A stretch of 32,000 bases of DNA from positions 1-32,000 of the forward strand of contig JAEOSH010000001.1 of assembly GCA_016840465.1 (NCBI GenBank). Direction: 5' to 3'. Each line of letters opens with the position of its first letter. Within the stretch, counting starts at the first letter, position 1. This stretch comes from Candidatus Baldrarchaeum yapensis (GTDB lineage: Archaea; Asgardarchaeota; Baldrarchaeia; Baldrarchaeales; Baldrarchaeaceae). The notes below the pieces were generated by a model, which saw only the letters and a list, made by a program, of their open reading frames with translations, made no database searches and was not told the DNA's origin. A program made the translations under genes and the position numbers. Shown piece after piece: positions 21,885 to 27,964 of the stretch.

Positions 21885-22664
21885 TTAAACGGATAAGTAG
21901 GGCAGTAATGTTCGTTTTATTACTGATTTTGTTGCATCATACGCTTTGGAGTTTATAGGCACATCCAGAAGAGGTTTCCCCTCAAAGTTGTATTCTGCCA
22001 CTATCTCGTCATAAGGTATAATTCCTGCAAATGTTATGTTAGCCGACTGTGCTATTTTTTCAAATGCAGCTGTCAATTTACTCGATACCATATTTCCAAC
22101 AAGAAAGATTTTCTTGAATCGTGTTAGTAATTTTTCGGAAAGATCTTTGATCCTGAGCACTGTTTGCATGCTCATTTTTGACCCATCTGCAAGAATGTAA
22201 AGTATGTCTACATCTCTATCCGTCCTCCGGCTTATATGTTCGAGGCCCGCCGGCATGTCCATAAGTATTACGTCGTAGTTTTCTAATAACATCCCTACTA
22301 TTGTTGTGAGCAGGCTATTTACAAGACAATAACATCCCTCACGCTCAGTGACCCCCATGACTAATAAATCGAATCCTCGCCCCTCTTCGAGGATTTCAAA
22401 AATCTGTTTTTCTAAGTAAAGTTTTTTATCGAAATCAGGGGGCAAATCATATTTTGAGTCCTTCACTTCGTTAACAACATCTCCTACTGTTCTTTTGACA
22501 TCAATTCCAAGCACATCAGGCAAATTCGAATCGGGATCAGCATCTACTAATAATATGTCCAGATTGCTTGCAACGTCGAGGAGATATTTTAACGTTAATG
22601 CGGTAAATGTTGTTTTTCCAACGCCTCCCTTACCTGAGACTGAAACCACTACGGCTCTTTTCAT
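21885..22664 (-). CDS. cooC: CooC/AcsF-family nickel-insertion ATPase
   Basis: Deviant Walker A GKGGVGKTT, VDADP, signature GCYC, DMPAGLEH, P-x-D-x-x-V. Confidence 0.88.
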   Translation of the reverse strand: MKRAVVVSVSGKGGVGKTTFTALTLKYLLDVASNLDILLVDADPDSNLPDVLGIDVKRTVGDVVNEVKDSKYDLPPDFDKKLYLEKQIFEILEEGRGFDLLVMGVTEREGCYCLVNSLLTTIVGMLLENYDVILMDMPAGLEHISRRTDRDVDILYILADGSKMSMQTVLRIKDLSEKLLTRFKKIFLVGNMVSSKLTAAFEKIAQSANITFAGIIPYDEIVAEYNFEGKPLLDVPINSKAYDATKSVIKRTLLPYLSV

Positions 22665-22740: not shown

Positions 22741-23319
22741 CTATGTTGCCTCATCATCAAACTTACACTTTTCACGAAGCCGCCTCTGCACATTCATTGC
22801 TATGTAGATTCTCCTAAAGGCCTTAAGCAGATTTTTATCGGTGCATAATTTGAGTTTTTGCTCATAGGGCATCCTTAGGAACTCCTCTACTCGAGATCTA
22901 TCTACCGGATCTATACAAATATCTGACAGTGATAACACGTACTCTGCAAACTCAGAAAGCATCTGAACAGCAAATTCCGCATTTATCTTTTCAAGTCGGA
23001 ACCTTATTATCGAAATTTCATCTTTCTTCTCGAGTTTCTTAAAATGCGTCTTTAGTGCATTTAGAAGTTCCTCCACTGATGAAAAACCCTCTTTTTGAGC
23101 ATCCTCATCTCTCAATTCTGAGACAATTTTCTGCTCGACTTCTTGGATTCTACCTATACCTATTACCCCACCATCACTTCCTCGTGCATGTAACATGACA
23201 ACATCATTTGCTTTCAGTCCTTTGTTCGTTTTTCGAATGGTTGCCCGCTTAAGACCCAATAATATTTCAAGTGCATAATTTCGACTAAACCCTAAATGTT
23301 TAATCTTCTGCCTCCTCAT
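22741..23319 (-). CDS. ASCH-domain protein with C-terminal helical extension (ASCH-1)
   Basis: LGFSRNYALEILLGLKRATIR, GDVV-like NDVVML, EDAQKEGFSSVEEL..L; start overlaps the tmcA stop by 20 nt. Confidence 0.88.
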   Translation of the reverse strand: MRRQKIKHLGFSRNYALEILLGLKRATIRKTNKGLKANDVVMLHARGSDGGVIGIGRIQEVEQKIVSELRDEDAQKEGFSSVEELLNALKTHFKKLEKKDEISIIRFRLEKINAEFAVQMLSEFAEYVLSLSDICIDPVDRSRVEEFLRMPYEQKLKLCTDKNLLKAFRRIYIAMNVQRRLREKCKFDDEAT

Positions 23320-25795
23320 CTTCTCTACCTGCGGACTCTAAGAGTTCGCCACCTAGTTTTGAGTACCGTACGCCAAGTGTATCGAGAATGTGGGGCGGAG
23401 GAATATAATGTTTGAGGAAATTCCTAATTATGTGCTCTAACTCTATTATACACCATTTTACGCTCTTCTTTAGAGCGTCTGCGGTTTCGTCCCATGGTTT
23501 TGCTTGTAGTATCTTAAGTATTAGCAAGAACTTTTGCTTTCTATTAAGGGTGGGCCTCTTTGCTGATTCGTGAAGGAAATATCTTATCGTTATTTTCTTT
23601 ATTGCATCAACAACTGCATTATATGGTAGTATTTCCTCAGCAAAGCAGTTTAGCCTTTCCCATTGGGATCTAGTCAATTCCGGCGGCGGGACGGCATATG
23701 CATCAAAATCTTCGGAAAGATGTACTGGTTCAAGTAGACGAACTGCGACTTCCGGCTCCATGTCACGCAGTATATCGGCCAGCAGATCTATCATTTTCGC
23801 TCTAAACTCGCGATGCATTTCAAAAACTATTTCTTTCGCCTTTTTACTGAGCGGTTTTATCACGACCACACTGAACTCTCCACTGACTGGGTTGCGTTCA
23901 GGGGAAACGTATACAGGAAGAAATCCGTTCTTTTTCCAGAATTTCAACAGTGCATCGCTTGCACCGAATACCGATCCCACCCAGTCATATCCCGCTTCTT
24001 CAGCGTACTTGCATAACATTTCAAGAGCTTTACTTCCTAAGCCCCTATCCATGACTTGTGGGTGCGTTGCGATTCTGACAATCCTCAGTCCTTTCAATTT
24101 GCCGAATTCCGGTGTCCTATGATGTTCTATGACTATATCGGGGATTATATTGCCGGGTGGATCGTATCGCTCATAGTATATTTTATCTATGATCTCATCG
24201 GGGAGTGATCCCTCTTCAGCCACCTGAAGAGCATTTACAATCGCGTTTCTTGTTCCGGTTTTCAGCGCAAACGCTTTATGATGTGGAGCATCTGCTAATA
24301 ACGCAACATCGTTCGGTCTATTCCGATAATGTGCATACACGTAAATTCCAACAAATTGGCGCATTTCGTCCTGTCGCTGTCCCTTAACAAACCAAACATC
24401 CTTGTCAATACTTACCAGTCTCACATTCTTCGATTTTACGTCCTCGAGATCCTGTGATGTTAGATCGACCGGTTCTGCATCGAGAAGAAGTGTGTCAAAA
24501 AGCCATTTCTCAATAGGATCCTCCTCTGCGTATCTAATAGGCTCCTCTATCTTAAGGGTATGCAACTCTATGTCCTTCTTCTCACGCAATGCACCTAAGA
24601 ACCTGATCGAGAACCCCCTACCTGCTCCTTCGTACCCATGGGTTGTCGACGAGAATACTAGTAGTTTATATCTTTCTAAAAGTTTCCAGAGTACCGGAAC
24701 CGGTATCCCAGCCGCCTCATCAACCGCTATTATGTCTCCCTTTCTTCTCAAAGAGTACCAAGGCCTTGCATAAATTAGGGATCCCACCGAAGAATGTACT
24801 TCCTCAATATTATCCTCCCATTTGACGACATTATACTTATAGCCCAATATATCAAGCACGGTCATGTAAAACTTAAATAGTTGCTGGACATTTTCGGCTT
24901 CAGGCGCTGTTACTATTATCTGTAATCTTCTATCCCTATGAAGGTGAGCAATGGCGGCAAGTGCCATACCTAGAACCGCGGACTTCCCTCTTCCTCTATC
25001 AGCTGTTATTACAATAACCATTTTCTTTTTTGTCTTTTTGAGTAGATTTTCTAAAAGTTTAAGAGCTCTAACCTGGTCCTGAGTCGCAGCGAGTTTATAC
25101 ACTTCTTTCGGGAATTCAAAGGCTGACGGAAATTCGATGGGCCTCTTTTCCTGAGGTTTTTGGAAGAGTTCCCTATCTCCTTTTATAATTACTTCTTTAT
25201 CGGCGTCAAAAATGTAAATGCCTTCGTGTTCGAGAAGTTTTCTTATGAAACGGATAAGGAAGCGCGAAACAACATCGTTGATCGTGTAAGGGGGTGTGAC
25301 TAGCCGATGCTGGAAGTTTGTCCTGATATCTTTCCATTGAGAGAAACTTGGAGTCAGGAAAATCACTAACCCCCCTCCTCTCACCGTTTCAACAAGCCTC
25401 CCTATGTCATTTGGCTCCATGTTCTCCCAAAGATCAAGAATTATGAAGTCGTTTGTCGTCCCCATGAGTCTCGTTGTATTCATGAAAAGTTCAGAATCGA
25501 TTTCCACCCTTTTATCCGTATCTTTTAACGCCTTCGAAAGAAGCCCCCTGATGTAGTTATACGTGAGGTTAGATCTTTTTCCCTCGTCTAGCTTTGCTGC
25601 CATATAGCATCCTTTCAATTCTCTTTTTTCCGTCAATTTAGCAAGCAACGTTATTATCTTTGCTGTCAATTCAGCCTTTTTTTGGTAATCACTTCCAGAC
25701 ACGACAACCAGTCTTCTATGGTTTCTTCTAATCGCATTCTCTATTGCTATCGTCAGCATGCCTTCTACGGCTTTCTCAAAGAAGCCATCGAGCAT
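23300..25795 (-). CDS. tmcA: tRNA/RNA cytidine acetyltransferase TmcA (Nat10/Kre33 homolog)
   Basis: HRRLVVVSG, GRLVETVRGGG, TADRGRGKS, VDEAAGIP, STTHGYEGAGRGF, EEPIRYA, HYRNRPND, GNAT RIATHP..RGLGS. Confidence 0.96.
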   Translation of the reverse strand: MLDGFFEKAVEGMLTIAIENAIRRNHRRLVVVSGSDYQKKAELTAKIITLLAKLTEKRELKGCYMAAKLDEGKRSNLTYNYIRGLLSKALKDTDKRVEIDSELFMNTTRLMGTTNDFIILDLWENMEPNDIGRLVETVRGGGLVIFLTPSFSQWKDIRTNFQHRLVTPPYTINDVVSRFLIRFIRKLLEHEGIYIFDADKEVIIKGDRELFQKPQEKRPIEFPSAFEFPKEVYKLAATQDQVRALKLLENLLKKTKKKMVIVITADRGRGKSAVLGMALAAIAHLHRDRRLQIIVTAPEAENVQQLFKFYMTVLDILGYKYNVVKWEDNIEEVHSSVGSLIYARPWYSLRRKGDIIAVDEAAGIPVPVLWKLLERYKLLVFSSTTHGYEGAGRGFSIRFLGALREKKDIELHTLKIEEPIRYAEEDPIEKWLFDTLLLDAEPVDLTSQDLEDVKSKNVRLVSIDKDVWFVKGQRQDEMRQFVGIYVYAHYRNRPNDVALLADAPHHKAFALKTGTRNAIVNALQVAEEGSLPDEIIDKIYYERYDPPGNIIPDIVIEHHRTPEFGKLKGLRIVRIATHPQVMDRGLGSKALEMLCKYAEEAGYDWVGSVFGASDALLKFWKKNGFLPVYVSPERNPVSGEFSVVVIKPLSKKAKEIVFEMHREFRAKMIDLLADILRDMEPEVAVRLLEPVHLSEDFDAYAVPPPELTRSQWERLNCFAEEILPYNAVVDAIKKITIRYFLHESAKRPTLNRKQKFLLILKILQAKPWDETADALKKSVKWCIIELEHIIRNFLKHYIPPPHILDTLGVRYSKLGGELLESAGREDEEAED

Positions 25796-25898: not shown

Positions 25899-26285
25899 TC
25901 ATACCGTGATTATATTTGCATCGAGATGCCTATACTTTTCGGGGTTTGCCGTAATTATATTTTTCGATTTCTCCAACGCGAATAGTGCAGCAACAATAGC
26001 CTCCTCCATCTCAAATCCCTGCGCCATGAAATTACGAGCCTCCAGAGCAATTCCCATGTCAACTGGCACTATATCAACTTGCAAATACGTCTTAAGTGCA
26101 GCGTCCATCACCGATAACATGTCCCATTTCCCCTCTTTGATCATTTTTGCACCGAAAACCAACAAAGTCACCGTCGAAACATAGAGTCTCATTCTTCCTT
26201 CTTTAACTGCAGACCATATTTCAAGAGCCCGTTTCTCCCCATTTGCTACTTTCTCCAGAAATGAGGAGTCCGCTATACCATCCAT
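25899..26285 (-). CDS. PIN-domain (VapC-like) protein with a degenerate active site
   Basis: IADSSF, LYVSTVTL, IVPVDMGIALEA, EEAIVAA, IITANPEKY pattern. ATG 26285, 11 nt after the GPN stop. Confidence 0.8.
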   Translation of the reverse strand: MDGIADSSFLEKVANGEKRALEIWSAVKEGRMRLYVSTVTLLVFGAKMIKEGKWDMLSVMDAALKTYLQVDIVPVDMGIALEARNFMAQGFEMEEAIVAALFALEKSKNIITANPEKYRHLDANIITV

Positions 26286-26296
26286 GTTTTTCACAC

Positions 26297-27076
26297 CTAC
26301 GTGAGATCTCCACATGTACAGAAAGCCTCGTGTATGAGATCATAAAGCTCAGGGAAGCCGATCATCTTCAATGCGGAAACTTTAACGATCCTGATTGCGC
26401 CGCTCATACTAGATATTGCATCTGTCAGCATTGCAGCCATATCGGATATGACGCCGTCTCCCTCTTTCATCAAAACTTCAGAGAGGTAGTCCACATCTAT
26501 AAGAAGTTTATCGATGTCGCTTCTTGAGCAAATGTCACTCTTGTTCAGAACTATTATCGTTGGAATTTCAAGTCTCAATGTTGCAGAGAGACCCATCAAC
26601 CTCGCCACTACGAGATCCGCTGCGCGCCGTGCAAATTTCGCATCTAGTATGAATACCGAAATTACTCTTCCCATCTGGCTTAGTCTCTTTATGACTTCTG
26701 GTCCTGACTCATGAAATATGAATACCTCCATTTGTCCAGGTGTGTCCACTACTACAATTTCGCCACTCACTCTTGCTATTTGGTTAATTATTTCATCGAT
26801 CTTCTCCAACATGAGTTCTGATGCTCTGATCATTGCGGCGTTTGGACCTATTTTTTCCCTGATCATTATGTCTCTGCATGTGAACATGCTCCTTATATCA
26901 AAGTCGGGTTTATAGGGCAAGTACTCACATCCGGGATCTAAATTTACATAGGTGACCTTATAATTGAACGCCTCCTCAAGCCATCTACCGAAGGATGCCG
27001 TGAGTGTTGATTTCCCAGATCCTGCCGGCCCGGTGAAAATTATGAAGAGTCTATTCGCATATTCATCCGTGTTCAT
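26297..27076 (-). CDS. GPN-loop GTPase (archaeal PAB0955/XAB1-like)
   Basis: GPAGSGKST, NLDPG, IGPNAAM (GPN), DTPGQME, LNKSD, VSA; C-terminal CTCGDLT. ATG 27076 follows GGAGG. Confidence 0.95.
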   Translation of the reverse strand: MNTDEYANRLFIIFTGPAGSGKSTLTASFGRWLEEAFNYKVTYVNLDPGCEYLPYKPDFDIRSMFTCRDIMIREKIGPNAAMIRASELMLEKIDEIINQIARVSGEIVVVDTPGQMEVFIFHESGPEVIKRLSQMGRVISVFILDAKFARRAADLVVARLMGLSATLRLEIPTIIVLNKSDICSRSDIDKLLIDVDYLSEVLMKEGDGVISDMAAMLTDAISSMSGAIRIVKVSALKMIGFPELYDLIHEAFCTCGDLT

Positions 27077-27148
27077 GGTGCCTCCCTCCATAACAATAAT
27101 TAAAAATACACCAATTTTTCTCCATTCTGATACTAACAGGTGATGATA

Positions 27149-27454
27149 ATGAGCGGTGCACACACTGGAGCTAGTAGTGAAGAGTTCAAGGTTGCACTCA
27201 GAGGAGTCATTGTGAATTACAGAAGAGGAAGACACACCCAGAAAAATACTCACGTACTAATCAAGGTGCCAGGAATCGATAGCAGTAAGGAGGCTGCAAG
27301 ACTAATAGGGCGAAGAGTCTTATGGATCTCCGAGAGCGGAAAGAGGATCAAGGGTAAAATTGTCGATATTCATGGGAACAATGGAGTGGTTCGGGCGCGT
27401 ATGGAAAAGGGGGTTCCCGGACAGGCTTTGGGAACAGAAATACTGATATTATAG
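27149..27454 (+). CDS. rpl35ae: 50S ribosomal protein L35Ae (eL33)
   Basis: GVIVNYRRGRHTQ, LIKVPGIDS, GRRVLW, GKIVDIHGNNGVVRARM..GVPGQALG; GGTGA SD before ATG 27149. Confidence 0.96.
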   Translation: MSGAHTGASSEEFKVALRGVIVNYRRGRHTQKNTHVLIKVPGIDSSKEAARLIGRRVLWISESGKRIKGKIVDIHGNNGVVRARMEKGVPGQALGTEILIL

Positions 27455-27574: not shown

Positions 27575-27964
27575 GTGGTCAAAATTTTGGACTTCGACCC
27601 CATTTTTGTCAAGCAGATACTTGAGAAGAAAAAGACAACAACAATAAGGAAAGGTATTAAGGACTTCAAAGAGGGAGATAGGGTCTATATAATGTCTCAG
27701 GGGAAAATATTCGCTGAGGCGGAGATTACAAAGGTGGAGGTTAAACAACTGTTCAAACTGACAGACGAGGATGCAAAAAGAGACGGTTTTTTGAACGTTG
27801 AAGAACTGATAAATGGTTTAAAGAAATACTATGAATCTGTAAAGCCTGATGATGTTTTTACGATAATACATTTCAACATCATTGCCACGTTTCTCAGCCC
27901 CGAGGAGGTACTTCAAACAAATGATGAAGAGAAGGAAAAACGTAACACTAGTAATAGCGAATAA
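27575..27964 (+). CDS. ASCH-domain protein (ASCH-2)
   Basis: LDFDPIFVKQILEKKKTTTIRKG, GDRVYI, LTDEDAKRDGF..EELINGLKKYY. Confidence 0.92.
   Translation: MVKILDFDPIFVKQILEKKKTTTIRKGIKDFKEGDRVYIMSQGKIFAEAEITKVEVKQLFKLTDEDAKRDGFLNVEELINGLKKYYESVKPDDVFTIIHFNIIATFLSPEEVLQTNDEEKEKRNTSNSE

Follow-up and report, generated by a model that had tools for sequence, protein, structure and literature searches.

What does a small ASCH gene do when it begins inside the end of the gene for an RNA acetyltransferase? The question is raised by the first 32,000 nucleotides (nt) of contig JAEOSH010000001.1 of the Asgard archaeon Candidatus Baldrarchaeum yapensis, a stretch that we call the window. Here tmcA, the gene of a writer of N4-acetylcytidine (ac4C), is followed on the same strand by ASCH-1, whose product is very probably an ac4C deacetylase, as judged from its residues and its modelled fold. 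The original prediction had seen in the two a co-expressed writer with an eraser, reader or salvage partner. With somewhat better than even confidence, we regard ASCH-1 as a clean-up enzyme, co-expressed with the writer, that acts on TmcA-made ac4C when this is free or exposed. The features on which the discussion rests are the following:

23300..25795, minus strand: tmcA, gene of the TmcA/Nat10 RNA cytidine N4-acetyltransferase, 831 amino acids, four Pfam domains
22741..23319, minus strand: ASCH-1, predicted YqfB-type ac4C amidohydrolase domain plus eroded AAAD_HTH-like tail (HTH, helix-turn-helix), 192 amino acids, PF04266 with E 2.4e-13
23300..23319, minus strand: overlap of the tmcA 3' end with the ASCH-1 start, 20 nt
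23233..23256, minus strand: ASCH octapeptide G22-x-K24-x-x-T27-x-R29 (Lys21, Thr24 and Arg26 of YqfB), from sequence and profile alignment
23089..23091, minus strand: Glu77, aligned with YqfB Glu74 in the profile alignment
22744..22992, minus strand: C-terminal tail of four helices (residues 110-192), a homologue of the HTH associated with archaeal ASCH, without its conserved Ser, Gly and three Arg

The identity of the writer, already named as TmcA/Nat10 in the original prediction, is borne out by its four Pfam domains, all above cut-off and in order (TmcA_N 14-197, helicase 262-439, GNAT 481-600, tRNA_bind_2 661-795). The motifs are intact and largely invariant in the alignment: a P-loop at residue 265, DEAA at 359, and the acetyl-CoA-binding stretch 571-588 with the GNAT acetyl-CoA glycine motif at 585. 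The gene is single-copy (one tblastn match) in a genome of 2.27 Mb that is 96% complete. Its product shares 43-46% identity with the Thermococcus homologues. Nat10 of Thermococcus acetylates CCG sites in RNA and thereby supports growth at high temperature. A reverse gyrase, a marker of high-temperature life, is also encoded in the window. By analogy with the enzyme of Thermococcus kodakarensis, TkNat10 (PMC12478401), we infer that TmcA writes ac4C with the aid of ATP and acetyl-CoA.

The ASCH domain covers residues 10-109 of ASCH-1 according to Pfam. The motifs KRATIR (residues 24-29) and DAQKEG (73-78) stand in the sequence as the original prediction had read them, and the YqfB residues that it considered as retained are indeed there: when a profile of 12 relatives is aligned with the YqfB chains, Lys24, Thr27, Arg29 and Glu77 fall one to one on Lys21, Thr24, Arg26 and Glu74. 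In the Escherichia coli enzyme Lys21, Thr24 and Arg26 are indispensable, and removal of Glu74 brings a 100- to 1000-fold loss (PMC6972931). The K, T and R of the octapeptide are invariant across the 12 relatives; the position of Glu77 is occupied by Asp in most archaeal relatives. A search of the PDB with the single ASCH-1 sequence yielded nothing useful; YqfB was reached only by the profile, as its sole significant relative of solved structure. The model of ASCH-1 (predicted local distance difference test, pLDDT, 89.9) has YqfB as its three top Foldseek matches. The superposition on YqfB, suggested along with the original prediction, gave 9kyf as best match, with Z 15.2 and a root-mean-square deviation of 1.9 over 101 residues; the next match has Z 12.0. 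The NCBIfam model for YqfB, NF003443, did not match ASCH-1, which lacks the Asp27, His70 and Tyr89 of the strict enterobacterial definition.

On the C-terminal tail the original prediction is silent. In archaeal two-domain ASCH proteins the AAAD_HTH tail binds tRNA and is dispensable for catalysis (bioRxiv 10.64898/2026.02.27.708502). Compared with these canonical tails, the 83 residues of ASCH-1 yielded an hhalign probability of 92% and E 5.9e-07 over 60 columns, and the four helices of the model (114-130, 138-149, 152-158 and 162-191) have four matching helices in the canonical model. From 18 canonical tails we defined six invariant columns; the definition is ours and not that of the preprint. 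ASCH-1 keeps one of the six, the Ala. Ser is changed to Tyr, Arg to Gln, Gly to Thr and a further Arg to Leu, and one Arg is deleted. The net charge of the tail is 0, partly because of its acidic end; most canonical tails have +5 to +10, some -1 to +3, and the orthologous eroded tails +6 to +8, which makes charge a weak discriminator. The top 50 structural matches of the full-length model contain no HTH protein; a canonical tail folded alone reached sigma-4, LysR and other HTH proteins only at Z 4.4-6.7. The tail looks like an eroded AAAD_HTH, and it has probably lost its tRNA binding.

The 20-nt same-strand overlap reported in the original prediction is confirmed by the coordinates of the open reading frames (ORFs) and by independent gene calls of four other assemblies, which agree on start, stop and overlap and rule out an assembly artefact. 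As such, an overlap is nothing unusual, since by a crude ORF count, which overestimates overlaps, ~29% of same-strand neighbours in the genome overlap; what exceeds chance is the recurring order of tmcA and then ASCH in other archaea. From the sequence, translational coupling is plausible, although 20 nt differs from the usual coupling overlap of 1 or 4 nt (PMC10666635). A scan for sigma-70 promoters and terminators gave counts near chance with models that are unsuited to archaea. Within the first three codons of ASCH-1 lies AGGAGG, a strong Shine-Dalgarno-like run (window 23305-23319, minus strand). It is located just upstream of the tmcA stop; the ATT of Ile6, the point at which Afu3-like relatives start, follows 6 nt later. 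The ATG of ASCH-1 is called as start in all assemblies.

The adjacency is not unique to this genome, as the original prediction had considered possible. We surveyed 80 archaeal tmcA loci with an ASCH profile built from Thr-type sequences, which could miss distant Glu-type neighbours. An ASCH gene lies directly downstream of tmcA on the same strand in 16 of the 80 and divergently upstream in one, where a crude estimate would expect 0.04-0.16 loci by chance. ASCH is the most recurrent tmcA neighbour of the set, and the pair is seen in Bathyarchaeia, Nezhaarchaeota, Geothermarchaeota, Aenigmatarchaeota, Micrarchaeota and Asgard archaea, a spread that other frequent neighbours lack. Across phyla the two genes remain overlapping or very closely spaced. 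The partners differ: the position after tmcA is taken by ASCH proteins of three architectures, and 14 of the 16 linked proteins are complete single domains without a tRNA-binding tail. On the FastTree tree of TmcA the linkage changes state nine times, seven of these changes being forced by starred branches; they may be gains or losses alike. Among 121 genomes of Bathyarchaeia, 14 have TmcA, with ASCH directly downstream in 12, divergent in one and absent in one (coordinates read by eye); eight of the 14 were already in the 80-locus set, and five of the six new ones carry the pair. Among 41 genomes of the Asgard phylum, TmcA was found in 10. The two genes are adjacent in G000 (this genome), G002, G003, G004 and G008, a contig end cuts the pair in G001, and they are apart in G012, G013, G023 and G033. 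In Thermococci and Thermoprotei the ASCH genes lie away from tmcA, and the link is therefore not obligatory. The pairing is not due to chance. Together with the conserved residues and the YqfB fold of the model, its recurrence across phyla supports the proposed combination of a writer with a probable ac4C deacetylase.

The history of the pair was traced with the help of G008, an Asgard genome of another order, and of a sister family, the same-order relatives of this genome, with proteins that cluster with NCBI entries under the label Candidatus Baldrarchaeia. TmcA is sister to the TmcA of G008 at 100/100, and a clade with the same-order enzymes is rejected (p 6e-05). ASCH-1 groups with the tmcA-linked ASCH of G008 and with three unlinked orthologues of the sister family (96/93 for full length, 91/91 for the catalytic domain). 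Orthology with the ASCH that is linked to tmcA in the sister family, and whose tail is intact, is rejected by the approximately unbiased (AU) test (p 0.0006 for full length, 0.002 for the domain only). In same-order genomes, the nearest orthologues of ASCH-1 share its eroded tail and lie away from tmcA. The branch of ASCH-1 is fairly long; that of the G008 ASCH is long, and it moved in a larger domain-only tree. The simplest reading suggests two different tmcA-ASCH cassettes within one order and a pair inherited or exchanged, in either direction, as a unit, because both genes group with G008 and not with the pair of the same-order relatives. A single origin of all linked ASCH genes may be compatible with the starred branches of the 111-column tree.

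How could the pair work? TmcA would write ac4C into RNA, and ASCH-1, presumably made from the same transcript, would hydrolyse the N4-acetyl amide to cytidine and acetate via Lys24, Thr27, Arg29 and Glu77; the residues are observed, the activity is predicted. ASCH-1 would mainly act on ac4C that is free, as nucleoside or nucleotide, or exposed in the breakdown products of RNA, with ac4C being barred from cytidine salvage until it is deacetylated. Mature base-paired sites would largely be spared. As a two-gene cassette, the pair would supply a cell that gains the writer with the disposal enzyme too. In E. coli and HeLa cells, deletion of yqfB or EOLA1/2 leaves RNA ac4C unchanged; free ac4C accumulates in EOLA1/2-null cells when its export is blocked, and structured RNA is protected from EOLA1. 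We favour clean-up over erasing of RNA because most linked partners lack the RNA-binding tail, that of ASCH-1 is eroded and the knock-outs elsewhere leave RNA ac4C unchanged.

Several observations weigh against the clean-up enzyme. The in-cell evidence for salvage stems from E. coli and HeLa cells, not from archaea. The genome has four ASCH genes, and the three paralogues of ASCH-1 could do the salvage. Lesser pocket residues deviate from YqfB: Lys30 stands for Asp27, Phe93 for Tyr89 and Asp73 for His70, Asp being the norm at the last position in the archaeal set. ASCH-1 is basic, with an isoelectric point (pI) of 9.4 overall and of 10.0 in the catalytic domain, which makes an action on intact RNA possible. 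In vitro, the tmcA-linked Afu2ASCH deacetylated wheat tRNA even at its paired D-stem (bioRxiv 10.64898/2026.02.27.708502). In 63 of the 80 tmcA loci no close ASCH relative was found within 4 kb, and 8 of 50 tmcA-bearing metagenome-assembled genomes (MAGs), which are incomplete, have no ASCH match at all.

The basic charge and the behaviour of Afu2ASCH on a paired site would also suit the main rival reading, a possible, yet doubtful, role of ASCH-1 as an eraser or proof-reader of intact tRNA, rRNA or mRNA, which trims off-target marks at unstructured CCG sites or resets the level of ac4C on cooling. All of the 19 ASCH proteins tested by Statkeviciute et al., nine of them archaeal, stripped ac4C from bulk E. 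coli tRNA in vitro, an activity that survived removal of the HTH; most of them, the archaeal ones reported included, also hydrolysed the nucleoside (bioRxiv 10.64898/2026.02.27.708502). The unstructured CCG RNA favoured by TkNat10 (PMC12478401) is the kind of site that EOLA1 can reach, and in the same-order relatives the ASCH partner of tmcA has its tRNA-binding tail intact. However, an eraser constantly co-expressed with the writer would drive a futile cycle unless regulated after translation, and neither the unchanged RNA ac4C of the E. coli and HeLa knock-outs nor the lost HTH residues of ASCH-1 fit such a role. We regard it as unlikely that ASCH-1 serves chiefly as a physical partner or as a reader, which docks on TmcA, perhaps via its altered tail, and delivers substrate or holds the acetylated product, hydrolysis being minor. 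The close spacing kept across phyla would agree with this, since short overlaps are over-represented between genes for the subunits of complexes (PMC10666635); so would the history shared with the G008 pair and a tail that keeps its four-helix layout while losing residues of the nucleic-acid type. Yet TkNat10 is fully active without a partner (PMC12478401), the slot after tmcA accepts three architectures, orthologues with the same eroded tail live apart from tmcA, and all four key catalytic residues are retained.

Improbable, too, is a link that is just a leftover of gene order, with ASCH-1 either decayed or active on a different acylated substrate, be it nucleoside or nucleic acid, and its position being without present function. 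ASCH matches do occur in 36 of the 107 Bathyarchaeia in which no TmcA was found, and orthologues of ASCH-1 persist apart from tmcA; the fairly long branch, the altered pocket tyrosine and the warning that activity may be a remnant in some ASCH members (bioRxiv 10.64898/2026.02.27.708502) point in the same direction. Against it stand an adjacency far above chance in unrelated lineages and the Asgard sample, where TmcA accompanies ASCH in all eight genomes that carry the latter and ASCH matches are absent from the 31 genomes in which TmcA was not found, kin not being independent. The boldest idea is that tmcA-ASCH is a transferable unit that writes and edits ac4C, the tail having turned from a tRNA-binding HTH into a dock for TmcA, and the complex setting the ac4C of intact RNA according to temperature. 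We consider it very unlikely. If true, archaea would have their first physiological and regulated ac4C eraser, and this in a lineage close to eukaryotes.

The clean-up enzyme, our preferred reading, touches a dispute: two preprints of 2026 disagree on whether RNA loses its ac4C by active erasure or ac4C is only recycled once the RNA has decayed. The link to tmcA marks which of several archaeal ASCH paralogues should be knocked out. The present genome offers a natural series of four paralogues with no, eroded or intact tail, the eroded one being linked to the writer gene. Because the organism has not been cultured, decisive in-cell work needs another archaeon.

Of the other ASCH genes, one lies in the window and is listed as context to the tmcA/ASCH-1 unit:

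27575..27964, plus strand: ASCH-2, single-domain paralogue, 129 amino acids, PF04266 with E 2.2e-17, divergent from tmcA, 1.8 kb from its start

Its octapeptide lacks the Gly. In two sister-family genomes (L018, L023, L025) its orthologue is found ~2.5-3 kb from that of ASCH-1, convergent and with no tmcA between them; perhaps the two genes remained neighbours while the region was rearranged. Contig C74 carries a paralogue whose tail is intact. The fourth gene, for 115 amino acids with a Ser-type octapeptide, follows 4 nt after a nitrilase-family carbon-nitrogen hydrolase (L004:621-1848; contig C83, 35555-36782, plus strand), possibly a second amide-hydrolase pairing for the breakdown of modified nucleosides. 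At 1.7 kb from it lies a relative of the ~180-residue protein whose gene recurs directly after tmcA in Thermococci (L036-L047, L077) and which resembles a ribonuclease of the NYN/PIN fold. Around the pair itself, the same strand carries, upstream of tmcA, a GPN-loop GTPase gene and an overlapping PIN-like gene (window 25899-27253, minus strand), and a CooC/MinD-like ATPase gene (window 21885-22664, minus strand) follows ASCH-1 after a gap of 76 nt; none of the three counts as a recurrent neighbour of tmcA in the 80-locus set.

Some surveyed loci are odd in their own ways. The small genome of a Micrarchaeota MAG, G054, has two separate tmcA-ASCH pairs (L102:3983-7510, L130:441-3287), each followed by an AAA ATPase of Cdc6/Orc1-like appearance; it may be a duplication or a mixed bin. 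The ASCH frame behind tmcA in G113 (G113:C5:40464-40643, plus strand) is open for 73 residues only, being truncated, frameshifted or cut by the contig end. In G008 (L027:587-1752) a Glu-type ASCH gene converges on the proteasome alpha-subunit gene just upstream of tmcA, which is thus flanked by ASCH genes on both sides. In Thermofilaceae and relatives (L076, L071, L072, L078, L081, L082, L091) tmcA is directly preceded by a TruD-like pseudouridine synthase gene, and the latter by a peptidyl-tRNA hydrolase-like gene, both named from appearance.

It remains to compare the pair with what is known. With E. coli YqfB (PDB 9KYF, 9KYH, 1TE7; PMC6972931) ASCH-1 has the fold and the Lys/Thr/Arg/Glu catalytic set in common; it differs by an identity of only ~20%, by its tail, and by the replacement of His70, Asp27 and Tyr89. 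TmcA shares its domain set with Nat10 of T. kodakarensis (PMC12478401), whereas in the nine loci of Thermococci the recurrent gene after tmcA belongs to another family, not ASCH. Afu3ASCH and Pku4ASCH, composed of ASCH and AAAD_HTH (bioRxiv 10.64898/2026.02.27.708502), have the two-domain layout of ASCH-1, with ~180-190 residues and homologous tails. For them we used P0019 and L115, respectively, as stand-ins because the termini match the published primers; P0019 is 46% identical to ASCH-1 over 109 residues of the catalytic domain. Their tails bind tRNA and keep Ser-Ile-Arg, Gly and Arg residues, whereas ASCH-1 has lost all but the one invariant position, and the Pku4-like genes of Thermococcaceae, unlike ASCH-1, are not beside tmcA.

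Similar in arrangement is Afu2ASCH of Archaeoglobus fulgidus (O28749), which has a Thr-type octapeptide and deacetylates nucleoside and tRNA in vitro (bioRxiv 10.64898/2026.02.27.708502). It is a single domain of 103 residues without a tail and is 29% identical to ASCH-1. Gene neighbourhoods were not part of that study. The gene that matches both Afu2ASCH primers lies directly behind tmcA and overlaps it by 14 nt (Archaeoglobus-type contig LDZQ01000580.1), and a tmcA-linked ASCH has therefore already been shown to be an active deacetylase. The original prediction was not aware of any characterised archaeal ac4C eraser; this no longer holds, as archaeal ac4C deacetylases exist and the operon link is in print. 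In one sentence and a supplementary figure, Relier et al. describe YqfB-clade ASCH genes in operons with TmcA/Nat10, the same two-gene operon-like arrangement, and conclude likewise that ASCH acts on TmcA-made ac4C; their main text differs in that it does not speak of archaea and contains no Asgard case, counts or tail variants (bioRxiv 10.64898/2026.08.01.741249). The locus discussed here, with a YqfB-clade ASCH next to tmcA on the same strand and conserved across genomes, agrees with their description. In kind, the pair is not new; what this locus adds, an eroded tail and the pattern of a cassette, is small.

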